DNA of 63,978 nt, filler included, from Dimargaris cristalligena (Eukaryota): NCBI GenBank assembly GCA_003614675.1. It is 4 parts of 4 records of this genome, joined end to end, with 100 filler letters (N's around TTAATTAATTAA, not from the genome) between each part and the next. Parts side by side here need not be neighbours in the genome. Positions count along the whole stretch, not along the records: positions 16,156 to 32,208 come from ML002862.1; 3 more parts are not named here. The stretch is one strand, 5' to 3'. Positions 4,765-63,978 of the stretch are shown piece by piece (the first letter of the stretch is position 1; every line of letters begins with the position of its first letter). Both the position numbers and the translations under genes were made by a program. Below the pieces are notes generated by a model. The model was given only the letters and a program-made list of their open reading frames with translations, was not told where the DNA came from and made no database searches.

Positions 4765-5058
4765 TTTCGCCACTTATGGGGAGACATTTCCCTGTCTAAC
4801 CTCGTGTACCCTAAGTCGCCCCAATGCTTGGTCTGGAATGTACTATGCTATCCACTCTATATTCCGCCGAATCTCCTCCGTCCTGTCACAGCACTTTTCT
4901 CCCTGGTCAATTCCCAACCCTTCTATAGTAAGGCTTAGTACTCGCTAAGCGAAGGGCCAGGGTCAGATTTACCTGGGCTCCTGTTTAGATATGGAATAAA
5001 GTATTTATTCATAAAGTAACCCCCCCTTTTTTTTTCATCGCTAGCCAATTATACATTT

Positions 5059-5194
5059 GGGTGAAATTCGGCCCAGCTGTATAATGGTTTAAATGATAAG
5101 TATATGGGAAAATATATGGAAGATTTATTTTTAACCAGTAATTTTTGCTTCAACTAACGGACTTTTCGTTATACAGTTCGGTTGAATCTCTCAC
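5059..5194. mobile_element. 136-bp MITE, copy 1
   Basis: Imperfect ~25-bp TIRs (GGGTGAAATTCGGCCCAGCTGTATA / TATACAGTTCGGTTGAATCTCTCAC). Flanked by ATTT on both sides (direct 4-bp duplication). Confidence 0.85.
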
Positions 5195-16055: not shown

Positions 16056-16155
16056 NNNNNNNNNNNNNNNNNNNNNNNNNNNNNNNNNNNNNNNNNNNNT
16101 TAATTAATTAANNNNNNNNNNNNNNNNNNNNNNNNNNNNNNNNNNNNNNNNNNNN
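16056..16155. other. Artificial contig-joining spacer
   Basis: 44 N + TTAATTAATTAA (stops in all six frames) + 44 N. Confidence 0.97.
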
Positions 16156-16255
16156 AGGGGCAGGGGCTCATTCACTCATCAGGGGTGTACTTCCAATAAG
16201 TGCGAAAAATGGATTAAAAATAAAAGTAGGTAAAAAATGTGGTAAGTTCACTACA
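16156..16255 (+). repeat. Dispersed repeat R1, copy of 69-168
   Basis: Near-identical to 69-168. Sits at the contig start. Confidence 0.85.
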
Positions 16256-16278
16256 CCATTCAATCTATATTTCCAAAA

Positions 16279-16873
16279 CATAATACCTTATGGTAGAGAT
16301 TTACTATCACAATAATACTGGTACTGTATTGAACATATATGCTTCTTTGGTCTATGGCCATAACTAGGACTGGTGAGTAGTGTGTTGTTAGGTGAGAGGG
16401 TGAGCTATTTAACTAATCAACTAAACTGGAAAAATTCAGCTGAAGGGAGTTAATATGGATGGCTGGACAAAGTGGTGGTTGGTAAGTGTAAGGGTAAGGG
16501 TAAGGGGAATACTGTATTTGCTTCTGCGGGGTGGTGGTATGAGTTATATATAGTTAGCCAAGACTTAGTTGTCAATGCCAAACTAGCTATATAGTTCAAT
16601 AGATAATGCAAGACATTCAATTTTAGTGAGCAGTAAATATTTATTATGTTTATCTGTCACTGTGATCAAAGCTGTTCTTATGATTGGAAACTAGGTGTTA
16701 TTATCACCTAGTTCCATCAACTGGTCACAGTAATTCAAACACCAAAGGATTATTTTCCTTTGATTATTTTTACCTGCCCATTTGTATATACAATACATCC
16801 CATTATTAATCTTAACTCCATTATTGTTCATCATTGTTTTTTGCATGACCAAATATTTAACTGATTTTGATAC
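16279..16873 (+). repeat. ~590-bp dispersed repeat R2, CpG-decayed copy
   Basis: Aligns along its length with the reverse complement of 28668-29256. Confidence 0.9.
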
Positions 16874-16877
16874 ATAT

Positions 16878-17013
16878 GGGTGAAGTTCATCCAGGCTGTA
16901 TAACAAACCATCCATTAGATGGAGTCAAAATTACTGGTTAGAATATTCAATCCCCCATATTCTCCCATATATGAATTATGTAAAATTTTATACAGCTGGT
17001 TTGAATTTCACCC
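16878..17013. mobile_element. 136-bp MITE, copy 2
   Basis: GGGTGAAGTTCATCCAGGCTGTATA...TATACAGCTGGTTTGAATTTCACCC, with ATAT on both sides. Confidence 0.9.
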
Positions 17014-18836
17014 ATATTAAGATTGCATATATCACTACTGAGAATAAGAGGGCAGCAATATACCCAATCTCTAATTCCTGGAGCATACACACCCTGGTTG
17101 GCACTTTCTGGTGATATGCTCACTGTTTTTCTTTATTTACCAAACCAATATTTTGACTTCAAATTTAGTCAATTCAATTCAAGGAAATATCCTGCCATCC
17201 TGTCGTCCTTCTCTTCATCTTGTAATTGGCCAAATTACAGTCCTTATTGGTTGAATTCGGAGTTTTTGGACTTACTGTGGTTGTGATAGGGTGGGGGTTC
17301 AGTCGTAATTCTTAAGTATGCAAACAAGCCATAGGAATAATACTCAGATGTTTGCTTCACTATATATATATATTCGATTAAAATGAAGGACTCTATTAAA
17401 AATAGAGCCTCAGAGGGGGTGATAACTGAACGATTCAAGTATATCTATTAGTAAAGCCCCCAGAGGCAGGTGGCTTAACAACTGCCTGATGGTAGATTAA
17501 GGGATATGTTGGGGCATAGGAAGAGCCCTATGTTTCCACAACGAACACTATTTCTTTGGATGGGGGAGCTAATGCAAGGCAGCGAGGCCTATCTATTTTC
17601 CGTTCCCTCACATCCTCTCTCTCCCTCTTTCTCCCTCTCTCTTGGGGCTAAACAAAGCAGCGCTGGGCTATGGATTTCCCCTTTTTTATTGACTATGGTC
17701 GGTAGGGTCCTCGATAATCGGACTTTTGGGTCTGTTTCACATTACCTAGAGAAATTTCGGAGAGTGGCTTTAGCCTCATATTAGAGGGGGTTCAACATGT
17801 CCCATCGTCACTTCCCCCTTCTCCTAGCACAATTCTAACAGCACGTTGAATAATATCCCGGGTAAATGAACTCCCCAGGCTTTAGATAATGAGTGGTAAG
17901 GATAAGAGGGCAGAATATAAAGACATCGATTGGGGCGTAAATCATATAGATGTTTTATTTAATTATAAAAACAACGACTTATCAAAGCGCCGTGTAAATC
18001 AGGATTTGCATTTGGTCTTTTAAACTGTTTCTCGTTCCGTCCACCCCCTTTCCTCCCCTTCTATAATCCCATTTTGACTTTACTTCCCTATGACTTCCCG
18101 TCTGCACTCCTTCCCTCTGTCTTCCCTCGCTTAACCGGCGACAGTCACCGTGACCGAACCCCCTTTGGAGGAGTGAAAACTACGAATACTCTCTTACTTA
18201 TCAAAAATGTCATTCTTTATCGTGCACCCACGATCGCTCATCATAGGGCAACTCGATTGTATCGGCACACCACACAGCAGCTCAAGGGTAGGTCTATCTT
18301 ATACGGCGACATACAAAACCAAAACCCAAAGAGAATCGAGCAGCCCGAAACACTACAGTATTCATTAGAACAAAGGGTGCAGTACGCCGTTAGCTACGAA
18401 ACAAGTTGGTTATGGGACTAGAGGCGCAGGTTTGGGGGTAAAAGGTTGGGGTTGAAAATGTCTGCCACTGTGGCTATCATGATTAATTTATTGGCGGCTC
18501 GTAGCCGTCTGCTGATCAATTTCACCCTATCCATCTCCGCCATCTCTATCATATCATATATACCCTCCTGCACATATTGCTTGGTGACTGTTTAATTCGG
18601 GCATTGGTGTGAATTATTCCGCTTTAGTAATTCCATATAAATATCCCATCCGTCGGCCTGTGTAGGAGAGTATATCATTGCATTCCACATCCTCCTATTT
18701 TACATTGACCCTCCATCCACTCCTTACTTCTATAAGTTCTCTCCACTATCACCGGTAAGCTTTACACTAGGAATTTATCGTTTACGGTCTTTTCGGACCA
18801 CTTGGTATAGCCAAGTAATTGGTTTAGGAGGTATAT

Positions 18837-18972
18837 GGGAGAAGTTCATTCAGGCTGTATAACGAAAAATCCATTGGATGAGGCCAATATTGCTGGTTAA
18901 AAGCTATTCTCCCACATATTCACCCATACATGTACTATGTAAAACCCTATACAGCTGGTTTGAATTTCACCC
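18837..18972. mobile_element. 136-bp MITE, copy 3, inserted upstream of the secreted-protein gene
   Basis: Same TIRs with ATAT duplication. The empty site is visible upstream of the paralog at ~31295-31325. Confidence 0.92.
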
Positions 18973-19111
18973 ATATTAATTTTTGTTCATCAGACGAACT
19001 TTATATGCTAAATATCTTCTTCCATTCAATTCTGAACCTGCCAACGATATGTAGTGAGTTTTTGGCCATCTACTTTCCCCCTTCCTTATCCCCACACCAA
19101 CCCCTGCTACC

Positions 19112-19471
19112 ATGCACGCCTTCCAATCCTTCCGTATTTCCCGTCGAGTTCTGTGCATCGCTCTCGGCAGCTTGGCTCTCCTTGTTTTGACCACGCAACC
19201 GGCCATCGCGGCCCCCCACCATGTGCATAGCGTCACCGAGTCCAACTTCGTCCACCTGAGCCGTCGGGCCAAACAAAAAAACAATATGGGTACTAATATG
19301 GTCAGCAAGAATGTCAACAGGAACAGTGGGTCCGGGAAGAAGGTGATCCCATTGGGCACGAAACCAAAAGCCATAAAGCCACGTGAACCCAAGGAAGCCT
19401 TTAAGAATTACAATAGTAAACCAGCAAAGGCCGATGGGTCCATGACGGATAAAAATGGGCCCATTGAATAA
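19112..19471 (+). CDS. Small secreted Lys/Asn-rich protein with prepro leader (119 aa)
   Basis: Signal-peptide-like MHAFQSFRISRRVLCIALGSLALLVLTTQPAIA-AP and pro-region ending HLSRR. Leader and 5' flank are conserved with the paralog at 31168. Confidence 0.75.
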   Translation: MHAFQSFRISRRVLCIALGSLALLVLTTQPAIAAPHHVHSVTESNFVHLSRRAKQKNNMGTNMVSKNVNRNSGSGKKVIPLGTKPKAIKPREPKEAFKNYNSKPAKADGSMTDKNGPIE

Positions 19472-21181
19472 CCACCAGATTCGCCCACTTCGACTAAATA
19501 TCTTGATCTTCGGTTAGTGAGACCGGTTTCACTAGCTAAAATACGATACCGCCCACGTTATCGTTGTCTTTTCATCCCAAACCAATTTTTCGCTCTGTTG
19601 AAATTCATCCAAATCCAACGCTGCATTGCCTACGCATTTTTTGGCCAAGCCATCCGCCATACTGTTGCCGGCCACCTTCGCTTAACTCAGTCGGTTGTAA
19701 CTCCTTTCGAATCATTTAACATAAAATTATTGGCGCAATTCAGCGGTCAAACAGCACCAGTCAATAAAATAACAGGCATTTATCATTTATCACTGATCAC
19801 TGTCAAATGAATATAAGATATTTTCGTCAATATAACGGTGCCTATTAATAATACTGTGAAGGTTGGTCTAATTATAGTGCAATATAGGTCCTGCTGTGCT
19901 GCATGTAAGCAAGTATATAATTTCATGTAGTACCAGGGCTTGGGGTTACGGGAGGGGATTCGGTGTGGTCCTACCGGGTGGAGAAGAACCGGACATGGGC
20001 GGGGTGCTTAGGATAAGGCATCGCTTCCTAGTGGATATAGGCCGCACAATTGGGGTTGATGACGATGTTGAAGAGTGTTATCTCCTTTGGAAAGATAGAA
20101 CGGTGACGAGCTATTCGTGACATTATGATATTTGACAAATACTAATGCTATTTATAAAAGAAATCTTAAATATACTTATAAGTAAATAATTGTAGTAAAT
20201 ATAATGATTGACACAGACGGGAAATCGAACTCATAATCATAATCATACTCGCGCTCACGCTCCCCGAATTAGGTATAAGAACGGCAGGTTTAAATTTATC
20301 GTGCATCAGAAATGGCCATAATAGCACTGGAGGTGCTCATCGGTCACCAGCGAAGAATTTTTTGTTGGAAATTCATTTCCCCTGTCCCACCGATTCTATC
20401 TCTCTGATTAGCTCGTCCTAAACTCGGGACTGTATTCTAGCCATTACTATATCATTCTATACTCGGGACTTCGTCCCAATCTTGATTATTACTATTATGT
20501 AACTCAATAAAATTAACCGCGGGCATCTAGCTCTGCTCCTTGCGGTTCTTTCTCTCATATTAAAATTATTTTAGTTGTATCCGAAGGCACTTGTGTTTAC
20601 CGTCGAATTTATCAATCCACCATTTTTATCATCGACAGCCTCTGTTTGCCGTTATCGGACTTTGATATCTGTGACTACTTTCTACCCACGGTTTCAGAAG
20701 TGGTGATTGACACTTTCGCTGGGCTGATAATAACGCTTCCGTCGAAACAACAGGTGTAATTATGGAAATAATCGTACGCGATAACATCGGCAAAAAATAG
20801 ACACTCTCCAACCCTGCGCTTTGCAGTAATACAAATCACCAACTAAACCCACACCCATTACATCAGCACAACCACAAGCTCACACTTTATCAAAGGTATT
20901 AGTTGTCCAACCAGTTCAGCATATGTAAATATAGATATCATTTAATTATAATCAGCAGCGTCTCCTTTTATCACAGTTTTCACGTTGTATAAATACCAGC
21001 AGCTTCTGCGTCCATCTGGGCCTAACAACCTGCTTCTTATTCTTAGGTTCCTGTTAATTATTTATATTTTCCCCTGATTATTCATACCTTCGCTAAATAT
21101 TTCTACGCTTGGTAGCAGTATTACATTCCCTAATTTGAATGGCTTCTATATATACGTATCTCCCCCCTTTATTCCACCAGC

Positions 21182-22087
21182 ATGGATCCCCTTGCTGATC
21201 ATTCCAGGCCAATTGATGAACATATCCCCATTGTGGGAAACCCTGTAACTGAGACTGTAGTGGCTATAGCCTCCACCGTGTCCCAGCGGCCCTTCCAGGC
21301 AATAACCGGATATGGCACTCCTCCCCGTTTTCAAGGAACTTTTTGAGACGACCCATTGGCCTGGCTCCGGCGTATGGAGTTATTCTGTGAAGTCCGCGAT
21401 ATTCCCAATTCCCACTGGGCGACCTTTGCCTCTGAATCCTTAGATGGCCTGGCTGCTACCTGGTTTTGTCGTACCCTATCGGATGAAGCCCAATCCCACC
21501 CTAACCTTACTCTTATGCAATTACCTATTATGGCCTGGTCTGCTTTCAAGCAGTCTATTACTATCCAATTTTTAAACAAAGACTTGAGTCTCGCTCTTCG
21601 AAACCAATTAGGCCAATTGCGCCAAGGCAACTCCTCGTCCAACTATATTTCCAAATTTAACAACTTGGTTCTATGTATTCCCGGTATGCATACCAGTGAT
21701 CAGCTGAAGTATTTCTTAGATGGGTTGCATCCTTCCCTACGCCAGGACTTACTAGTTGCGGGTGTTACCCACTTGACTGCCTTGACCGAAGCCCTGATAA
21801 AGGCCCTGGATTTGGGGAATTCCTCTCCGTTTACGGCCCGATTTTCCAGCCAGCATAATCGGCCTTTTCACAACCGGCCCCTGAATCCCCAACCTAGGTC
21901 CCCGGTACACTAAACAAACCTGGCATCTATGGAACTAGACTGGCGTCAAACCTTGACCCTCCGAGAGCGTCGACAGTGCCAGGCCCAAGGCACCTGCTTC
22001 CGCTGCCGCCAAGGGCGACATCTGGCCCGACATTGTTCTGGATTTCCCATCAGCGAATTGCTCTGCGACCCCCTCCTTCCCCGCTAG
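21182..22087 (+). mobile_element. Decayed Ty3/gypsy gag (two in-frame stops, no pol visible)
   Basis: One frame from ATG 21182 reads PPRFQGTF*DDPLAWLRRMELF...WSAFKQ...LRQG...YISKF...FLDGL...*...MELD...CFRCRQGRHLARHC (capsid motifs plus CCHC knuckle). PBS-like TGGTAGCAG at ~21110. Confidence 0.88.
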
Positions 22088-22896
22088 CCTCACCCTCCTA
22101 ATTTATTAACACCAATTTTAGTTACTAAGTTCTTTTCTAAAAAAACTCCAGAAAGAAATGTATATAACCGAAAACCCTCAAAGATAATCTAGTGATTTTA
22201 TTGCTGCGACTATTCCAACCCAATCTGTGTACCGCAAAACCACTCTTCCTTTTCAATCCTAGCATTCTGATGCTGGTGCCTACTAGCTGTTTAATTCAAT
22301 TGATTTTATATTTTGGGGATACTCTTGAAATCCCTCAATACCCTGGCCATCCCGAAATAAACCCCCATATTCTCCCATAGCGCACCTGCGACCATAATGC
22401 CATGCCCGTATAGTGTTGAATATTATGATTAAATTGACTGAATTAACCAACCAGGATATATCCACCCAGAATTATGACCAACTGACAAGTCCAATAGCCC
22501 CTCTGTTCTTCATAACCCTCACCGAAAACACTCAACTAAGTGGTCAGTCGTATAATAATGATAAGGGCCAGATAATCTGCCCGTTTATTTTATTTATATC
22601 GATATGTATGCATGAAGATTTGTATATCATTAAAATTCGGACACCGCCCGTTGGCTATATTAGGTTAGTGACAGTAAAATCGGCTGCAGTTGATAAAGCC
22701 CACACAGAACGCAAAGCGCAATGAGAATCCACGACAGCCGACCTGCCGAGGCCCCCCACCCGCACTCCATTCCGCCATGTATTAAGACCCCACTCGTATA
22801 CCGCCCAGGCGACCGAAAACAGCGCGTTGGAGTAGGCGGGCAGCGGAACGGAGGAGACCGTTAACCATGACTGCCGGGGTAGTCCCGGAGGGGTGC

Positions 22897-25739
22897 TTAA
22901 AATTTGACACCCCGGGTAAGGTGGGCCTTGATACCAGTCGACTCGCCCCCGTAGGCCGCTGTCGGCGTGACGGCCACCCGTTTGAACGAGCGTAGTTTTT
23001 TCTGGGCCTTTTCGAACTTCTTGCGCCGGACCACACGGGGGTTGCGGTTTTCCGGTTTGCGACGGGGGGCCAACCCCCGGTTGACCAGGATATGCCGCGT
23101 GGCTTTGCGCCGTTGCCCCTGGTCCAATCGTTCGCCGGCAATGACTTCGTCCACCAATTCGCGTTTCTGGGCCAATTTCTCGTCCCGGCGCTGTTGGCGT
23201 GCCGTGTCTTTCTTGGCCTTTTCCAAGGCCTTGATGGTGTTGGAAACGTCGTCGTCGTCGTCGTTGGCGTTGCTAAATTGGGATTGGTTGCCCTTGGACG
23301 CCGAGGCGTTCTTTTTGGAGTCCCGGCCATTTGTGCCACGTCCTCCGGCCATTTCACTATCGTCTTCGGCCCCGGAACCGGTGGCCGGGTCTCCTCCGTT
23401 AAAGTTATCGTCCACATTGAGGACATTCTGACTGCCGGTACCGGCCAGGGGCTGGACAGGCTCTTTGTAGGGCAAGTCGGTATCACCGGTGAATTTGAGG
23501 CGTTTATCCGTCCGATCAAACCGCTCTCCAATCCGCGATACCAAATGGCGAAGGGACCGGCGGCTGGCCTGCTTATCGTCCTCATCGAGCTCATCCAGGT
23601 AGTCCATATCAACCAGATCATTCCCGGCCAATTTACGCTTGGTCGCATTGATTTCCCCCATCGCCCGGGCCCGGCGGTGCTGGACCTGGATTTCCTTTTG
23701 GAGGGATCGAAGGGACGGTTCGTAGGCCACTCCCTTGGGGGCAGTAGATGACTTGGCCGTAGATTCGGAGGCCAGGTCACGATCGGACCCGGAATCTTCG
23801 CTTTCGCTGTCCAATGCCATATCTTGTTCGACAGCCTTAGACTTGTGGGTAGATGATTTCGCCGCCTTCGCTTTCTTTCCGGTAGTCTGGGCCACCACCT
23901 CCTGGTTATCGTCGGACTCTTCCGACTCACTCTCTTCGCCGGTCTCCTTCCGGGCCAAACGGGCCAAGAAATCGGTCACCTGGGGCTCGAGTGTCGACCG
24001 GACGGCTTGCAATTTACTCAATAATTGCCGCAGTTTTACCAGCACAGCCACGACGGGGTGGGCGCGCAGTTTGGCCTGGGACAGTTTGCCCCGGGCTTTG
24101 AGGGTCAGGTAGAAGGAAATGTTGGTTAGGTAGGACATGGCCGCCTGGTATTCGCTCTCCCAGAGGGTCAGTACGGGGTACGTTTCGGGGTCGGTGATAC
24201 CCAGGGCCCGGGCACGCTGGAGACTGGGGGCCAGTTCCCCGCTGGTTAGGCGGCGGACGCGGGTGAATTCGGACATGAGTTCCAGAACTTCCGGGGAGTT
24301 TTCCTGGAGAATTTGGATCTTCTCGGCTTGGGGCAGGGCCGCCAGATTGGACGACCGAACCTGGTCCAGCTGAATCAGATGGCCATCACCCGAGGCACCA
24401 CTGGCGGGGGTCTTTTCGTCGCTCAGTAGAACGTCCAGGCTCGACAGGAGTTGCTTATCGGCTATGGAACTGGTGCCCACTTGGACAGTGGAACTGAAAA
24501 TCAGGTGGTCCTCGCTCTGCTTCTTGGCCTGATGGGCGCGGGCCCGCATGGACGCCTGGGGAGCGGTGAGGTCGATGGTATCCGCATCCTCCTCGTCGTC
24601 TTCGTCGATGAGGTAATCATCTTCATTCACGGCCTCCAGTCGGAGTTTCTGGATACGTAAAGCTTCTTCTTCTTCGTCTTCGCGGTCCTGCTCCTCCTCA
24701 TCGGCTTCTAGGGGCTTTTCGGACTGGTAGTAAATGCTTTTACGGTTTCCCCAACCCGGATCGACACGCTTGGCTGAAGTAGTGGATTATATAGGAAATA
24801 TAAAGTAAACGGGTTAATAGGTCAATAGATATAAAGGGATGTATCGAATGTGCATCATTGGTATTCGTATTCCAACTTGCCTTCCAAGCAGGCCTGGGTC
24901 AGGATGATCCTTGGAATGGTAGCGGTCGCATGGGGAATGAGTTAGTTAAGGGTCGTTTTAAGGTAGTACCCCAATTTAGTTCACCAGGCATACGTTATAA
25001 ACCGAATGTCAACTTACTTTCTTTGGCCCCGAAAATTTCGTCCTTATCCATCGATGTCTGCGAGCTAGTATCGTCGCTGTTATATTCTTCAATATCCTCG
25101 TCCATATCATTATCGTCACTCTGATCGTCACTGTCACTCGAATCCGGTACTTGATAGATGCTCCGCTCGGAGTCAATGGGATCTAAACGTCAATTAACAA
25201 GGGTGACATGGAGTGAAAAGCTAGTTAGTTAATAAGCATAGTGAACTCTCTGGTCTATATAGAATACCAGTTGGTATAGTATTGTTATTTGTCCAGATTT
25301 GAGCAGGGCCTTGCGGCTACCATGCTAACACATACGGGGATGAGCATCACGGATGACTTACCATGGCGATTAAATACAGGCGCGGGGGCGAGTGAGGTGC
25401 CTTCGAAATCGACCTTGTCTCGGGAATTATGAACTATAGAGATACGATAAGGTGTCGCATAGGAAGAGGGGGGTGAGAGTTAGTGATGGAATACAGACGC
25501 GGAATAGGAATAAGTATTAAACCAAGATTACGGATAACGAAACATATTTCGGTAGACAAGGACCAAAATCTAGACTTACATTCGTCGATATCATCCTCGC
25601 TTAAATCATCCCACTTTTTGATGGCATCCCTGGTAGCCTCCGTGCGGAAGGCGCGGGAGTTGTTATCGAGGTACGACTCGTCGTCGTCATCGCCGGTGGT
25701 CCGGGGCTTCGGCTTAGCCGAACGACTGGAACGTCCCAT
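22897..25739 (-). CDS. SAS10: SSU processome component Sas10/Utp3 (about 4 exons)
   Basis: Acidic N-terminal exons, GWGNRKSIYY motif, SPEVLELM...YLTNISFYL...HPVV (Sas10/Utp3/C1D domain), and C-terminal NRGLAPRRKPENRNPRVVRRKKF...YGGESTGIK. Confidence 0.93.
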
Positions 25740-26565
25740 GCTGGTGGTTAAGAGGGCCTGGAGCTATTTAGCGGAAAATAATGCAATGAGCAAGCTGTGA
25801 AGCCCAAGGGAATAAAATGCACAAGCTCGGTATCGAAGAAGGGGGATGTATTTTAGAGTGCAGCCCGGCCGACGTTCTATCGCGGCTGTAGTCGAATGTG
25901 GTGGTCACGGTGAATGGGGGCAGCAATAGTTGCCAAAAGGACAATGGAAGGGAACGAAATGTATAGGTGTGTGAATCACAAGGAGCTCTTTCACTTTCAC
26001 TTTTCTTGGTATGTTTTTTCCACTATTTTTTTTTCTTTTTGAGTGAGCGAGAGACATATATAACATATTCAAGATTAGCTGGTAATTTGGCTGTCTCTAA
26101 TAGGAGGGGCACACAGCTCCCATTCGGCCTATACCGGACAGGTAATATATGTCCACCATATTCAAAAAAAAGTCCTAAGTTGAATTGGGTAACGTGACCT
26201 ATATTTAACACTCCCTATAATCTATGGTGGGGGTATTTTACTAAAGGCTAGAAAGCTGGGACCAATATTAAATACGCTCTGAATTCTATTGCCCCGATAC
26301 TTCTAGTCCCAAGTCCATGCGAAGCCCCTACGTACCCAACAACCATTCACAACCTCGACCCATTCCAGGTGGAAGCAGCTGTATTGCTACCATTATACTC
26401 TTACAATTTATTTCGTACACTCTATAAGAGAAATCCATTACTTGCGAGCTCCCCCGAACCAGCCTCTGGGGCCCCTCGTATAACCCCATCTCAACCATTG
26501 GGCCTGTATAAACATACCTTTTCCCGATAGACGTACACGTACGCACTCACACACACACGCACACC

Positions 26566-27555
26566 ATGTCCAACCAGGTCAATTCCTTCTTGCTCGACCC
26601 AGACCACCGCCGGACCTTTATCCGGGGTACCATAGCCCTAGGCCTAGCCGGCGGCAGTACCGCCTATTACTGGGCCATGTTTAACAACCGGGAACCTTTC
26701 CTGAAATACGGCACCACCTGGGGGGTTCGGGCCGGCACCCTGGGCGCCATGTTCTTCGGCATCCGTGAAACTATTATCCTGAACCGCCGCACCGAGGAAC
26801 ATCGCGCTGGTATCAAGTCGTATGTGTACCGGGACTACGACCTAATGTTTGGGTCCATCGGGGCTGGGCTTCTGGCCACCGGGAGCTACTCACTTATTAC
26901 TTGTAAGTAATATTGCACACCTAATGTTATATGCGATTCGAAACTGTGTGGTTTAGACAGCCCCTTGCCGTTGCCCCATACTTCGGTATGGTCATCAGTT
27001 TTTTGTTATTATTATAGCTCGGGCATATCTAACCTCCTTTGAACCAATTCGTTAAATATGTACCTCATTATACTATGTCTACATTTAGTTGGAAAACAGG
27101 CTGTTATACCGGGCATCATCATCGGTGGTCTCACGGCTGGCGCAGGCCAATGGGTTGTCACTTCATTTTCCAATCTCCGCCGCTCTTACATTTACCGAAA
27201 TACCAAAGTGAAAACCCCCTCTGATTCGACCACCACTATAGCTGAACCAAGCCCAGCGCCCACTACCGTCCAGGTAGCCGATTTGCCCAAGGAGGCCAGG
27301 AGTTTTTCACGCTATATGAAAGATACTTTTCTCCCTGCCTCGTGGGCTGGTATCAGTTTCAAAGCGCCTTCGTGGTTCCCATTGCAGAGACTGTCGGATG
27401 AAGAATACCTGAAATCGCTGCGGGAGCGAGTGGAGGATATTGATGATGAAATCGACGTGATCAATTCGGAATTGGAATACCTCCGTGAGCTGTACTTGAG
27501 AGATAATCCTGATGAGGCGGACGCGATAGAAAAATCCAATTCCAAATCTGAGTAG
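26566..27555 (+). CDS. Conserved fungal membrane protein, Tim17/Tim22-like Gly-rich TM helices (exons 26566-26902, 27089-27555)
   Basis: Phase-consistent GT-AG intron. Four GxxxG-rich hydrophobic segments. C-terminal WFPLQRLSDEEYLKSL followed by a coiled coil. Family assignment is from pattern only. Confidence 0.75.
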
Positions 27556-27681
27556 AATCGGCCAAAAAAAAACACGGGAGAGCCTCGATTTAACTGTTTA
27601 CCGTGAAATCTATCTGATGAGATAGGCAATGTTGGTTATTGAATAATAATAAAACCCCCATATATTTCCCTATTTACATAT

Positions 27682-27818
27682 GGGCGAAATTCGGCCCGGC
27701 TGCATAAGGTGGTACACAATATATGTTTTGGGAGAATAGGCGGGATATCCGTGGTTATTCAACATTACTTCCTTTATCCAATGGATATTTTGTGATACAG
27801 CCTGGCTAAACCTCTCCA
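27682..27818. mobile_element. 136-bp MITE, copy 4 (more diverged)
   Basis: GGGCGAAATTCGGCCCGGCTGCATA...GATACAGCCTGGCTAAACCTCTCC. Left flank ATAT. Confidence 0.8.
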
Positions 27819-27977
27819 AGTATTTAATTTGTCACAGCACCACCTGGTCAAATAATTCAACAAACAAGGGGAACCGTTTCATACGCTACCATGTTCAATG
27901 CCAGCCCTACATCTTTCTATTTGCCCAACATGCCCAAGCCTTAAGCTGTAGGACCAGGACCTGATGGCAATACATAT

Positions 27978-28325
27978 TGTGACGTTTTACGTCCCTTGTC
28001 TAACGCACATTATATAATTGACGTGTCCCTCGACGCCCCTTTAATTATTATTCAACAATCCGAGTTATTACTGGCTTACATTATTCCAGGGTGTCCTGGC
28101 TCTACCACAACACGCCATAATCGCATCACGTTCCCAAACAACCACACCAATACTTTATAAAGAACGTCCTCGGTGGATGTTGAGAAAAGAAGACATCATC
28201 ATTCCCAACAACTCGCACTATTACCTTCTTAGCTATTTCACTTGTTTACGTATTTTTATCTACCATTTTCTTATACCTCGAATAAACCTTCGTCTTAACA
28301 CCAACATTGGCGCTGAACGAAGTGA
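27978..28325 (+). mobile_element. Putative retrotransposon 5' LTR plus primer-binding site
   Basis: TGTGACG start, TATAAA (~28156), AATAAA (28281), ...CCAACA end at 28306, then TGGCGCTGAACG (PBS-like). The internal region is lost after MITE copy 5. Confidence 0.55.
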
Positions 28326-28357
28326 GATTTTCTCTAAACTCTTATATCGTCACACAT

Positions 28358-28493
28358 GGGTGGAATTCAGTGCAGCTGTATAAAGGTTTGGATGACACAC
28401 ATATGGGAAGATATATGAGAGACCCATTATTAACTAGTGGTTTTTGCCTCATCCAACGGATTTATCGTTTTACGGCCTGGTTGAACCTTTCCC
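28358..28493. mobile_element. 136-bp MITE, copy 5
   Basis: Same TIRs, flanks ACAT/ATAT. Confidence 0.88.
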
Positions 28494-28667
28494 ATATACT
28501 TCCTACCTTGCCTCTTATTTTGCTGGGACTCTCCCACTCTTTTCTTTAACCCCATACCCACACTCCCCCGTTGCTGCACACATGGCCTCTTTTCTCATAT
28601 TACCATGTTTATTCATTTTCTCTTTTACAAGTATCATTCTAATCAGTCCACTAGTCCACTTCAACTT

Positions 28668-29256
28668 GTATCAAAATCAGTTAAATATTTGGTCGTGGAG
28701 GCAACGATGATGAGGGATAATGATGGCAGGATAAAGAACGGGATGTATCGTATATATGAATAGACAGGTGGAAATAGTCGAAGAAAAATAAACCTTTGGT
28801 GTTTGAATTACTGTGACCAGTTGATGGAACTAGGCGATAATAATACCCAGTTCCTAATCATACGAACTGCTTTGATCACAGTGGCCAATTGACGCGATAA
28901 ATTATAGATGTTCACTAAATTTGGATGGCTTACATTGTCTGTTAAACTATTCGTCTAGTTTGGTCTTAACCACTAAGTCTCGGCTAACCATATATAACTC
29001 GTACTACCTCCTCGCAGAAGCAAATGCAGTAATCCCCTTACCCTTACACATACCGACCACCACTTTGTCCAGCCATCCATATTAACACCTTTCCGCTGAT
29101 TTTTTCCTGTTTAGTTCAATAGTTCAATAACTCACCCCCTCACCTAACAACTCACCAACCACCAGTCCTAGTCATGGTCGTAGATCAAAGAAGCATATAC
29201 GTTCAGCACGGTACCGGTATTATTGTGATAGTAAATCTCTACCGTAAGGCATTATG
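28668..29256 (-). repeat. ~590-bp dispersed repeat R2, CpG-retaining copy
   Basis: Reverse complement aligns with 16279-16873. Confidence 0.9.
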
Positions 29257-30005
29257 AACTACTATAATATGGCAACTATTACAGGCTCTATCATCAAGGC
29301 CTAACGGCAATGTAACGTCACCACACTTTAATCCTCCCCAGTGGGCTTCCCAGGCTTACTTTTTAAGTCACTATACTCGACTGGGTCGATTAAAACATTA
29401 TAAGGTGAACAGATCAGTTAATATTATTTGGACCATTGTTGTATATATATATGCATATATATATAATTACTTACTATGCGTTGATCTGCCTTTGTATTTT
29501 GTCCTGGGTGTCTAGAACGTATTTCATATGCATACCGTAGAAACCCCCGCGAGTGGTTCGAAGCCCGAGTCACCAGTATAGACATAGACCTCTATAGCTT
29601 AGAATTGACCGATGATGATGGGGATAGCGTTACGGAAAGAGCCCAAGATATTATTATTCGCTAAGTGCAGTGCCGTCAGGCAGTCCACGGTCGATCTTTA
29701 ACGCTCGACTACCAGCCTATCCGGAGAATTGCACAATTCAACTGATGATTAGTTATTATTTTGGACGACAACGACTAATCCTGTGAAAGATTCGACGAAT
29801 ACCCTTGAATGTATCCACGCCTTCGGGTGGTGTTTGCTGCAGCTAATGATTTGGTGATGTTTTAAGAAGTCTTGGGTGATAGTTACTTTACGGCACTTGT
29901 TCATGGAGCCCCCTTCGAAACAGACGAATTCGTTCTGCTGATTGTTTTGTAACCTCCTTCACGACTTTTTAGTATTCCCGAAATAATTGCCTATTAAATA
30001 AATAT

Positions 30006-30141
30006 GAGTAGAATTTGGCCCATCTGTATAAGGCTTTACATGGTATACATATGGGATAAAAGATAGGAAAATCATTTACAACCAACAGTATTTGTATCAT
30101 TCAACAGATTGTTTGATATACAGTCTGGTTGAACTTTTCCC
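30006..30141. mobile_element. 136-bp MITE, copy 6
   Basis: GAGTAGAATTTGGCCCATCTGTATA...TATACAGTCTGGTTGAACTTTTCCC, with ATAT on both sides. Confidence 0.85.
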
Positions 30142-30599
30142 ATATGCAAATGGAGAAGTGGGAATTGTTGAAATAAAAAAGGCATTCCGTGGTTGAATAC
30201 CCGCTCCTCACTGATGGAAAAAAGTGATGATAGTGCCCAGTTCCCGAAGATAAATCAGCTTTATTCACATAGAATATTTAGCACGTCATGGGCCAAGATG
30301 TAAACTCAGTGAAATGTGATAAATGAATATCCATCATATTTCTACATCACACTGTCTGATGCTAGGGAAAAATAAGGTAATCCCACCCCTAGTGCCCACA
30401 ATATTATACCAGCCATACGCAGTACACTGGAGCCCAAATTATACCGTGATTAAACCAGTCTACACAGTATTGCAATTAGGTGACATTGTCCGGTAAATAT
30501 ATGTACTATACAATCTACTCAACAATGTTCAACTATAAACACCATATACTATATTGAATTGTGCCAATTTATCACTAAGATACACCAATACATGCATAT

Positions 30600-31168
30600 T
30601 AAATGGTTTTAATGCAAGTTGCAACCCACTGAGCTGAGGATAGATGATGGGTACTGCTATAGTTAGTGGCTTGACAGTTAGAAGAATGTTTGGGTAAAGT
30701 TGTGCTAGATTTGTATATTTTGCAAGAGAGCTATGTAGGCTGTTGGAATAAACAGTAAATAGTGAAAGGGGCAGTGTCCATGATTTTAACCAGTAAAATT
30801 GGTCTAACCAGCCAAAGATCTTGTTAATGAGCTGAAGTAGGTGCCACTTTATCACCCACAGATCCCACTTTTTAATTCAAATACTTGATTTTGACCTCCA
30901 GCATTGGTTAATGGCTTTCTTTTATAGACTGAATGTATTTTTCTGCCATAAATGGGAGTTCCTTAATAGCCCCTACTAACTTCGACCCAAACTCTTTCAC
31001 TTTTTCTAAACTCTGGTATTGTAGGTGTAGAGTGTGGCTCTCAGTGAGACCATCCACATGGTGGGGAGCTGTGGTAACTGACTGTGAGGTCAGCACTAGG
31101 AGGGCCAGGCTGCCAAGGGTGACATACAGAACTCAGTGGGGCATGCTAAAGGATTGAATGGCATGCAT
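30600..31168 (-). pseudogene. Pseudogenised paralog of the 19112 secreted protein with a different C-terminus (3' boundary approximate)
   Basis: MHAIQSFSMPH*VLYVTLGSLALLVLTSQSVTTAPHHVDGLTESHTLHLQYQ aligns codon for codon with the 19112 leader. TGA replaces CGA, and further in-frame TAA/TAG stops follow. Confidence 0.85.
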
Positions 31169-31408
31169 AGAATCAAAAGGGGTTAATGTGGGGATAGTGC
31201 AAAGTAAGTGGGTCAAACACTCACTACATACCATTGGCATATCAAGAACCAAATGAAAGAAGAGAGTAGGCATACATATTTAGTCAGATGCAAAAAAATT
31301 AACATGCCTCCTCTAAACCAATTACTTAGCTGTACTGTAACAGGATGGCATGTAGGGATAGATTAATCAAGTAATACTAAGTGAGGTTATTGTAAATAAG
31401 ATGTGTAG

Positions 31409-31624
31409 TGTAAAATAAGTATTTTATTGTAACATGAAGATCTTTTGAGTATGCAAGTCATTACTTCTTTTATATCTATATTTCTAGTGTCTGGGTAGAG
31501 TGACTGCTGTTTGCTGCTTGTTCTGAGGGGGCCACTATGGTGAGGGGGTTGGATGGAGCATTCTCATTGATTGGGATGAGGGATTGTCCTAATGTGGAAC
31601 CATCTGCCCCCTATGAGGGTTGCA
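31409..31624 (-). mobile_element. Solo-LTR-like repeat, copy of 899-1119
   Basis: Reverse complement TGCAACCCTCATAGG...CAATGAGAATGCTCCATCCAACCCCCTCACC...GATATAAAAG...CAATAAAA matches 899-1119. Confidence 0.65.
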
Positions 31625-32208
31625 GTACCAACTGGTGCAAAAAGACCATGAATGATAAATCCATAGTGTGGCACTTACTGGTGGTGATGGGGAGAACTTA
31701 TAATAGTAAGGAATGAAGGTGGGACTTATGTAAAATAGATAGATGGAGAGTGCAATGATATACTCTCTTGTACAGGCCGGTGGATTGGATATTTATATAA
31801 AATCATTGGAGTGGATTAACTCTTTGAAAGTGTGGGTAAAGTAGTTGGAGTAAAATACACAAGGAGGAATAAATAATATGGTGGTGATGGATAGAAGGAA
31901 ATAGATTAGCAAGCAAACATGAGCTGCAAATACACTGATGACAGCAGTGGTAGACTGTCTCAGCCCCTCTCTCTCACCTCCAAGCCTGGTCCTCTAGTCC
32001 CAGAAGCAACTATTATTATTTTTAAATAGGCAGATAAATATTTTTTTTCAAAACAATATTGGAATACATGTGTCTAATCAATCTTTAGACTGAACTCACA
32101 TAGTTATAAAGAACTGAACTCAAATCCTTAAAAACTGCACTTTATTTGAAAAAATAGATGATAAGAAGGGAAAGGTGATGATAGACTTGCTGTTCCAAGA
32201 GGTGGCAG

Positions 32209-32308
32209 NNNNNNNNNNNNNNNNNNNNNNNNNNNNNNNNNNNNNNNNNNNNTTAATTAATTAANNNNNNNNNNNNNNNNNNNNNNNNNNNNNNNNNNNN
32301 NNNNNNNN
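32209..32308. other. Artificial contig-joining spacer
   Basis: N44-TTAATTAATTAA-N44. Confidence 0.97.
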
Positions 32309-48290: not shown

Positions 48291-48390
48291 NNNNNNNNNN
48301 NNNNNNNNNNNNNNNNNNNNNNNNNNNNNNNNNNTTAATTAATTAANNNNNNNNNNNNNNNNNNNNNNNNNNNNNNNNNNNNNNNNNNNN
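48291..48390. other. Artificial contig-joining spacer
   Basis: N44-TTAATTAATTAA-N44. Confidence 0.97.
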
Positions 48391-61882: not shown

Positions 61883-63925
61883 TGTGAGCAGTATAGATAT
61901 AGGAAAATGTATGATACGACCAGCGGTGGTAATCGAGCCGGAGCTGTATAATATAAATATGGGCGAATTTAGGTAAATCTAATTAAAAGAGCTCATCTAA
62001 ATAATTAATATCTGGTCATACAAGCGTACAATATCGCAAGCAATAGATAAAAGTCGAGGGGATAGGTTCGTCAAATAAAACCAATTAAGATTGTTGGGGT
62101 ATTGGGGTATATATATAGGCTGGTAACATTGTGAATACACTATTACAAGGGTTAAAATACTGTACATGTGGCGACGTGGTCTGTCCCTCCGGCCAAGACC
62201 AAAATTGCCTTTAACGTTTGTTTTTTTTGCGGGTATCTAGTTGATAGTACGGGGGACCTTAATATGAAACAATGGGGCCGGCGTGGGGGGGTGTATTGGG
62301 CGATGAAAAGAGATAAAAAACCCGGCCGGTTGTGTAACCACAGATAAAGTGCCTTGGCCGCGGTTGGGAGTTTGAGTTGAGGAAAGAATATATGACTTAG
62401 TTTTGGTATCACTAATCATGCACTGCTGGAGGGGATGATAAGGTAGTTTAAATGGTCAGCCGGAAAATTATCGGGACATGTTTGCTCTTATCTTGACAAA
62501 TCTTCCGATACTCATTCACTCCAGGGTACACCCTCATATGTTTTGATGGCTCTGTCCGACCACTTCGCAGTCCGTCCCCCTGGATATTTTCGCCACTCAA
62601 TTTTTGATTATTTTACATTGACCACCACCACTCAATCCTTACACATGGTCAAGGTCGTCAACCTATCAAATTTAACCGCTATACCATGAGGTTTGTTTTT
62701 TCACGCTTTCTAAACCTGGATCTTGGTAATAGGTTCCTGTGTGGGGTAGAATTCCCTTGCTAGAGGTTACGGATATAGCCGTATTTCAATGACAAGTTAA
62801 GGCCCGCCACACCTATATAATATATTTTTAGATACCCGGTTTTTTATTTTCTCGTTGAAAGCCCAGTGCAGGTATTTGGGACTAATCTATTTCCCAATGA
62901 TAGTACATCCCTAATGGATCTCCATCTGCGCAATTTACAAACCAATCACTGATTTGGACAAGCTTATTTCTTCAGCCAGTCGTACATTATAGGAATAATG
63001 CCCCAATTTATAGATCCATTACAAAGTATAGTCCACCGTCCCTCTTGTGCTTTTTTTTATTGTTTGCCTACCAAACCGACTAATGCGAATTCTGCCCAAT
63101 CAAGTATATGTAGCCCCCGAATGAAAAATAATAATACCGTTTAGCGACATTCAACATGGAGTTGAAATAGTGAAAGCAGAAGGTGAACGAAAGGCCTTCC
63201 CGAAGGAAATCCAGAGATTATTCTGTAAGAGAAAAGGGCCCGCCAGGGGCGTTGGTAAATGTCTGCAGTTAGTTTGATTGAATTGATTATACATATAAGG
63301 AATAATAGTTCGTGTGAAATAGCGTCCCAAGCATGAGTCGATTGGCCCTAGGTATATAATCAGTGAGTAAAGTGAAGTTGATTTCCTACCCATGTGGTAG
63401 TGTTTGAAATCGGGCGACTAGGTCAATAGATAATATTTAAAAGCACCGCCCGAAGACTAAAATACTTTGTATATTGGCGTCTGTCTTGGAGAATATTAGT
63501 CGAGCCTGAGGGGTTGATAGAAAATATATATTCTTATTAAGGTGTACCCAATCCCTCCCCCTAGTGTGATATCGTTTTGCCAATGGGGCTGACCAGTTTA
63601 GTTGAAAGACTAGGCCTACCGGGACAGTTGGAATCCCTCTCAATAAACGCGGAATGAGGTGTACGTAGTGGGCCAACCCGATTTCAATGACAAGTCAGGG
63701 TTGGTTCGACATGGTTAATTGAACATGATATATTTTAATCAGGGATATGTAGGTACGGAAAACGAGGATCAAATTAGTTAAACTAGGGGAGATGTCTTAT
63801 ATTCATGTATAGGCGAATTTGACAAAGAATCCATTATTTGCCAGGTTGACATTAAATTATCCCGCTTCTGTGATTGGGTCGTTTTATAGAGTAATATGAT
63901 GATGGACTTAATGGTCAAACCAAAT

Positions 63926-63978
63926 GGGAGAAGTTCATCCAAGCTGTATAACGAAAAATCCATTTGATGAGGCAAGTA
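63926..63978. mobile_element. 136-bp MITE, copy 7 (cut by window end)
   Basis: AAAT then GGGAGAAGTTCATCCAAGCTGTATAACGAAAAATCCA, close to copy 3. Confidence 0.85.

Follow-up and report, generated by a model that had tools for sequence, protein, structure and literature searches.

Conotoxin-type precursors are encoded by large, expressed multigene families, mostly with cysteine frameworks, and the precursors of mussel peptides are alike. The RXLR and Crinkler effectors of oomycetes number tens to hundreds per family, have defined motifs for translocation into the host, and consist of an N-terminal leader followed by a divergent C-terminus. In plant-pathogenic fungi, the Kex2-processed pro-domain (K2PP) effectors have, in their first half and preceded by a stretch prone to disorder, a KR, RR or LxxR motif; in the extended form of the Kex2 motif, P4 is aliphatic, P2 is Arg or Lys and P1 is Arg (PMC8528282). 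In the Kex2-processed repeat proteins (KEPs), Kex2 sites flank each of several peptide cores that are nearly identical (PMC6339444, PMC9769878). Here we analyse a stretch of 63,978 nucleotides (the window) from Dimargaris cristalligena, described in PMC9866270 as a mycoparasite of the Dimargaritales, which contains two inverted copies of a locus for a small, putatively secreted protein: copy 1, with its start codon at 19112 (+), and copy 2, with its start codon at 31168 (-). An initial annotation, made from the DNA of the window, had read them as two members of a modular secreted family, in which a conserved leader is joined to unrelated C-terminal payloads. We favour instead, with a probability of about 0.6, an old inverted duplication of a small secreted-protein locus, leaving one live copy and one CpG-decayed pseudogene, with the C-terminal payload having diverged in place.

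The protein encoded by the intact open reading frame (ORF) of copy 1 is identical at 118 of 119 residues to the NCBI hypothetical protein H4R33_006058, from another assembly of D. cristalligena. Five sequencing runs were compared, all as DNA contigs (Logan), one of them (X5) from a second study. The contigs of this second-study run showed one difference from copy 1 in 1441 bases (19206 T>C, corresponding to I32T), which is the same variant as in H4R33_006058, and copy 1 is intact in two strains. Its N-terminus, read from the translation, has the n-h-c architecture of a putative signal peptide, with a basic n-region (R8, R11, R12), a 16-residue hydrophobic core (VLCIALGSLALLVLTT), and AIA at positions -3 to -1 before the likely cut. 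The AlphaFold2 model of the protein had a mean predicted local distance difference test score (pLDDT) of 62.8, and was confident only for a helix spanning residues 3-27, where the score was highest; residues 36-39 scored below 50. The payload has a calculated isoelectric point of 10.25, contains 13 Lys, 9 Asn and no Cys, and is predicted to be disordered. No Pfam family was found for the copy 1 protein, and its structural look-alikes in the ESM Atlas were not informative (best feature score 0.78, template modelling score ≤0.51, model pLDDT 0.54). The product of copy 1 is most likely a secreted, possibly Kex2-trimmed, disordered polycationic peptide; we infer its secretion, processing and expression from these features of the sequence.

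The His-rich pro-like segment that follows the putative signal peptide ends in LSRR, with L49 at P4, R51 at P2 and R52 at P1, which fits the extended Kex2 motif. In the initial annotation it was part of APHHV...HLxRR, a candidate processing or translocation motif; copy 2 lacks the site and reads LQYQ at this position. The arrangement resembles that of the K2PP effectors described in PMC8528282: copy 1 has a putative signal peptide and then a short, probably unstructured segment ending in a canonical RR with Leu at P4, and the motif L49-S-R-R52 lies within the first half of the 119 residues. The locus differs from them in that the motif is absent from copy 2, in that the host of D. cristalligena is other fungi and not plants, and in that copy 1 has, in place of a folded effector domain, a Lys-rich tail after the site that is predicted to be disordered. 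The arrangement of the KEPs, as far as it is described in the two accounts, was not seen, because copy 1 has a single RR and Tandem Repeats Finder revealed no tandem repeats in either ORF.

Copy 2 is a decayed pseudogene, because its frame, homologous to that of copy 1, is disabled by three in-frame stops and it retains only 5 CpG dinucleotides in 1421 bases (observed/expected 0.09). The corresponding figure for copy 1, its intact paralogue, is 50 CpG in 1331 bases (18600-19930; observed/expected 0.84). The two open family members of the initial annotation are thus reduced to one, the frame at 31168 having stops at codons 12, 87 and 99. Removal of the codon 12 stop by an intron was rejected, since a single GT..AG pair brackets it and this pair, at 23 nt, is too short. 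No annotated protein matching the read-through of copy 2 was found in a word-index search. The ends of the contig that carries both copies (16156-17155 and 30156-32208) are also CpG-poor, with observed/expected ratios of 0.07, 0.20 and 0.03 per kb block, and the genic middle of this contig (16156-32208) has ratios of 0.6-1.1, a distribution that fits methylation-driven decay of repeat-rich parts.

The differences between the copies are of the kind that such decay would leave. With copy 1 taken as the starting state, the changes seen most often are C>T (70) and G>A (43); the opposite direction gives 48 and 33. None of the five CGN arginine codons in the leader of copy 1 is preserved in copy 2, and at codons 11, 12 and 52 a single CpG transition separates the copies (CGT/CAC, at its CpG; CGA/TGA; CGG/CAG). 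CpG decay of the CGN arginine codons would therefore account for the TGA stop at codon 12, where copy 1 has CGA, and makes the loss of the RR motif in copy 2 explicable. The second-study contigs differ from copy 2 at 12 positions over 29057-32129, none of them in codon 12; 10 of the 12 lie within 31141-32001, as against the single difference in 1441 bases for copy 1.

The upstream region and approximately 52 leader codons had been described as common to the two copies, and this was confirmed. Blastn aligned two blocks, 18404-18807 with 32011-31626 (68% identity, E 2.6e-33) and 18972-19240 with 31306-31040 (70%, E 2e-28), the second of which extends into the leader. The leader was also recovered by tblastn (E 1e-14), with a shared length of approximately 49-52 codons; over the first 49 residues the two translations agree at 29, of which 19 lie among the 33 of the signal-peptide part and 10 among the 16 of APHHV..TES..HL. 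Homology restarts approximately 10 bases past the stop codon of copy 1 and runs for approximately 470 bp (19481-19943 vs 30844-30382). This 3' flank is 65% identical over 474 columns, with an alignment score of 612, compared with 94 ± 14 for 200 shuffles (z = 36) and at most 144 for 36 real control segments from the same contig. Divided by part, identity is 68-72% in the 5' flank, 65% in the leader and 65% in the 3' flank, and in local alignments the outer homology ends sharply, at ~18402 with 32013 and at ~19949 with 30377. Because homologous DNA lies on both sides of the payload, the alignments indicate that the whole ~1.55-kb locus, and not the leader alone, was duplicated in inverted orientation, and the proposed leader cassette recombined onto unrelated payloads is not supported. 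The possibility that the ~1.55-kb unit is itself a transposon was rejected: it has no terminal inverted repeats at its ends, and its contig depth in the second-study run is that of a single-copy sequence.

Between the homologous flanks, the payloads could not be aligned. After codon 52, DNA alignment was not significant, either local (p = 0.38) or global (p = 0.40), and alignment of the copy 1 C-terminus to copy 2 in each of its three frames, which would recover a relationship obscured by frameshifts, was not significant either (p = 0.18, 0.68 and 0.79). Inversion of the payload was rejected, as the local score of the reverse complement (12-16) was no better than that of the forward strand. 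In an ungapped patch of the MAFFT alignment, 28 of 82 columns were identical, where ~27% is expected from composition (binomial p = 0.09), compared with 251 of 348 in the upstream flank and 270 of 439 in the downstream flank (Fisher p = 4e-10 and 5e-6). Relative to the non-coding DNA on its two sides, the payload thus shows a real excess of divergence. The claim of complete divergence directly after the LSRR position therefore stands as far as the payload itself is concerned, but LSRR belongs to copy 1 only, and homology returns 3' of the payload. Since the flanks are at 65-72% identity and the payload is at chance, neutral decay alone cannot have randomised it. Of the two origins that had been offered for the payloads, recombination of a leader is not supported and rapid evolution is left as a possibility.

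Accelerated substitution together with indels, or else diversifying selection, is the probable cause of the divergence, the two being taken jointly; with two copies, these processes and replacement of the segment are not separable, and the dN/dS of the payload is not computable because the region does not align. The conceptual frames are alike in length (119 codons in copy 1 and 114 in copy 2), and the sense-strand A content of the payloads is 0.40 and 0.37, compared with 0.15-0.29 in leaders and flanks. Lys is more frequent than any other residue in each payload (13 of 67 and 10 of 62), and an in-frame alignment of the ORF ends (the last ~19 codons) pairs GSMTDK with GSVGDK but does not reach significance (p = 0.11). 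The shared length, A-richness, Lys-richness and in-frame end weakly favour divergence in place over the capture of unrelated DNA.

Such a capture, in which a stretch of ~150-210 nt encoding the mature peptide of one copy was swapped for unrelated DNA by gene conversion from a third, diverged paralogue or by insertion-deletion repair, is the best surviving alternative, although we consider it unlikely. It would explain why payload identity is at chance while both flanks are at 65-72%, and why the alignment breaks on the 5' side directly past codon 52 and on the 3' side no further than ~10-50 bases from the stop codon of copy 1. However, the properties just listed as common to the payloads, among them the reading frame of the ORF end, would not be expected from a random swap, and neither the window nor the protein databases yielded a donor for either payload. 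Copying of the payload from elsewhere in the window was rejected, the best matches being chance matches of 11-20 nt (E 0.45 or worse), and so was an origin from tandem repeats, none being present in either ORF.

In the pattern of divergence, the locus resembles the conotoxin-type and mussel precursors: the signal and pro part is recognisable, the mature part is unalignable and the surrounding DNA is alignable, so that the mature region is more diverged than both the signal region and the non-coding flanks. It differs from them in comprising one apparently live gene and one pseudogene, in lacking cysteines, and in giving no evidence of positive selection, as dN/dS cannot be computed for the mature part.

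We then considered the size of the family within the ~64-kb window, the protein databases and the DNA-run contigs at ≥90% likeness. Tblastn of the 119-residue copy 1 protein over the window recovered both loci, with any other match at E = 2.8 or worse. A phmmer search of 1.84 billion protein representatives (E up to 0.001) gave one match, which was the copy 1 gene itself. Likewise, one of six candidates from a word-index search with the whole copy 1 protein was real, as was one of four with residues 1-55 (E up to 10), and in both cases this was again the gene itself. In three DNA runs, no further contig matched the unique parts of either copy at ≥90% likeness, a cut-off below which copies of ~70% identity would fall. 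By title, among the matches listed, the literature on secreted proteins of D. cristalligena contained no paper on this gene or on such a family. As far as these searches reach, copy 1 appears to be an orphan, species- or lineage-restricted gene.

As far as they reach, these results speak against the modular family proposed in the initial annotation, which had been expected to run to more than two copies. A real multi-member family whose other members are unannotated short ORFs, or are too diverged for the searches made, is in our estimate improbable. Gene callers often miss short ORFs, the searches covered the window and databases and not the whole genome, the leader bears signs of past coding constraint (see below), and LSRR fits the Kex2 motif. 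Against this, only two loci occur in ~64 kb, one of them a pseudogene; the database searches, including the permissive leader-only search, return the gene itself, from a protein library that, as this match shows, holds at least one annotated protein of the species; and the three DNA runs contain no further contig at the stated likeness. The comparison drawn with oomycete RXLR and Crinkler effectors fares no better. An N-terminal leader followed by a divergent C-terminus is a point in common, but no RxLR or LxLFLAK string is present in the copy 1 leader as read from the translation, the Dimargaris pair consists of two loci in the window, one of them dead, with databases returning the copy 1 gene alone, and homology resumes after the payload over the ~470-bp 3' flank.

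The leader retains a trace of its coding history. Its differences between the copies are distributed over the three codon positions as 18, 6 and 23 (p = 8e-4), and a Nei-Gojobori comparison gave proportions of nonsynonymous (pN) and synonymous (pS) differences of 0.21 and 0.65 (dN/dS ~0.16, Fisher p = 3e-6). From the codon-position pattern and the excess of pS over pN, we conclude that both copies once coded for protein. As candidates for the constrained frame, the antisense ORFs (18976-19374, minus; 30933-31157, plus) were rejected: their codon position 2 would carry 18 differences, which leaves the sense frame as the constrained one. At non-CpG sites, differences per site are 0.26-0.30 in the leader, 0.27 and 0.27 in the upstream blocks and 0.35 in the 3' flank; at the DNA level, the leader is no better conserved than the non-coding flanks. 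That neither copy is a gene, and that the frame at 19112 is open by chance within duplicated DNA of non-coding or repeat-derived origin, would agree with this last result and with the lack of a homologue outside the species, the lack of a Pfam family and the low-confidence structure models, but is very doubtful given a codon-position pattern that fits the sense frame, a frame opening with a textbook n-h-c signal peptide, CpG retention in copy 1 like that of neighbouring genes, and its intactness in two strains.

The preferred reading, an inverted duplication followed by decay of copy 2 and divergence of the payload in place, may be set out as follows. A ~1.55-kb locus on a 16-kb contig of the haustorial mycoparasite D. 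cristalligena would have been duplicated long ago in inverted orientation. Copy 1 would have stayed a gene, its 119-residue precursor entering the secretory pathway by way of the 33-residue signal peptide and being cut by a Kex2-type convertase after L-S-R-R (residue 52), which would release a 67-residue, strongly basic, Lys/Asn-rich, cysteine-free and disordered peptide. Copy 2 would have landed in methylated, repeat-like DNA and lost nearly all its CpGs by C-to-T transitions; this decay would have destroyed its CGN arginine codons, turning codon 12 into TGA and removing the RR site, with a pseudogene as the result. Purifying selection may have held the signal and pro part for as long as both copies lived; in the Lys-rich, low-complexity mature part, substitutions and small in-frame indels may have accumulated in place until the sequences could no longer be aligned.

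Several points weigh against this reading. Neutral drift alone is insufficient, as the flanks differ at only 0.27-0.35 of non-CpG sites, and some extra process is needed for the payload; the shared composition and similar length are weak arguments for divergence in place. The estimate of constraint on the leader is affected by CpG bias, with 15 of its 47 differences falling in 26 CpG positions, so that the pS of 0.65 is inflated by CpG decay. The gene model of H4R33_006058 in the other assembly is a prediction, and the secretion, Kex2 cleavage and expression of the copy 1 product are putative. Finally, the whole genome lies outside the scope of the family-size searches, and unannotated, diverged copies elsewhere in it are possible.

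Three linkers of the form N44-TTAATTAATTAA-N44, at 16056-16155, 32209-32308 and 48291-48390, split the window into four contigs of ~16 kb apiece, joined end to end; features on different pieces are therefore not genomic neighbours. The second piece (16156-32208) contains copy 1 and copy 2, ~12 kb apart and inverted relative to each other (Table 1). After the duplication, a different repeat was inserted upstream of the ATG in each. The insertion in copy 1 resembles a miniature inverted-repeat transposable element (MITE); dozens of Logan contigs end at it, with a summed depth of ~1000x baseline in three runs, and the element is extremely abundant in the genome, with a very high copy number. The insertion in copy 2 is 80% identical to 899-1176 on the first contig, and this ~280-bp repeat contains a 19-bp tandem array at 31387-31445.

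Table 1. Positions of the features of the duplicated locus and of its surroundings, counted along the window.
Feature	Position	Strand	Remarks
Copy 1, intact ORF, 119 codons + stop	19112..19471	+	apparently the one live gene
Copy 1, putative signal peptide, codons 1-33	19112..19210	+	read directly from translation
Copy 1, His-rich pro-like segment APHHVHSVTESNFVHLSRR, codons 34-52, 19 residues	19211..19267	+	ends in Kex2-type LSRR
Copy 1, payload, codons 53-119, 67 residues	19268..19468	+	not alignable to copy 2
Copy 2, pseudogene remnant, conceptual 114-codon frame from ATG at 31168	30824..31168	-	homologous to copy 1 frame
Copy 2, in-frame stop, codon 12	31135-31133		
Copy 2, in-frame stop, codon 87	30910-30908		
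Copy 2, in-frame stop, codon 99	30874-30872		
Duplicated unit, copy 1 (5' flank + ORF + 3' flank, ~1.55 kb)	18402..19949	+	local alignments
Duplicated unit, copy 2 (inverted, ~1.64 kb, nearly CpG-free)	30377..32013	-	local alignments
MITE-like insertion, ~146 bp, upstream of copy 1 ATG, absent from copy 2	18833..18979	.	29-nt terminal inverted repeats, 79% complementary
Other MITE-like copies	16874-17020, 28356-28505, 27678-27817, 5055-5176, 63924-63973		
Repeat insertion, ~280 bp, upstream of copy 2 ATG, absent from copy 1	31343..31624	.	gap opposite copy 1 in alignment
Ty3-type gag fragment, between both copies	21374-21913		Retrotrans_gag, E 1.7e-10
Sas10/Utp3 gene, between both copies	22897-24549	minus	Sas10 C-terminal domain, E 1.4e-22

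Two further observations concern the DNA around the copies. The gag fragment belongs to an isolated Ty3-type gag ORF region at 21374-22087 (Retrotrans_gag, Ty3_capsid), where a short ORF carrying a CX2CX4HX4C zinc knuckle comes next; because the ORF list contains no pol ORF directly downstream, this gag ORF may be truncated or domesticated. The same contig also contains a second inverted repeat pair (16279-16874 vs 29256-28667; 596 bp, 82% identity), which is not collinear with the gene pair. This is probably a dispersed repeat, because contig depth is very high at 16156-16691.

If the ordinary reading of one live gene and one pseudogene is true, it has little consequence, adding one more orphan small secreted-protein candidate for a haustorial mycoparasite, and offering a clean local example of how CpG decay in the D. 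cristalligena genome may turn arginine codons into stops and erase a dibasic processing site. It is improbable that the mature segment is a focal hypervariable or exchangeable cassette between conserved flanks, with the promoter, signal peptide and Kex2-type pro-segment on one side and the 3' flank on the other, and with further unannotated members in repeat-rich parts of the genome. Were this so, it would be a fungal counterpart, in an early-diverging mycoparasite, of the precursor design of conotoxins and antimicrobial peptides. If more copies exist, focal hypervariability of a secreted peptide could be studied here in a fungus, at a locus small enough to be tractable.

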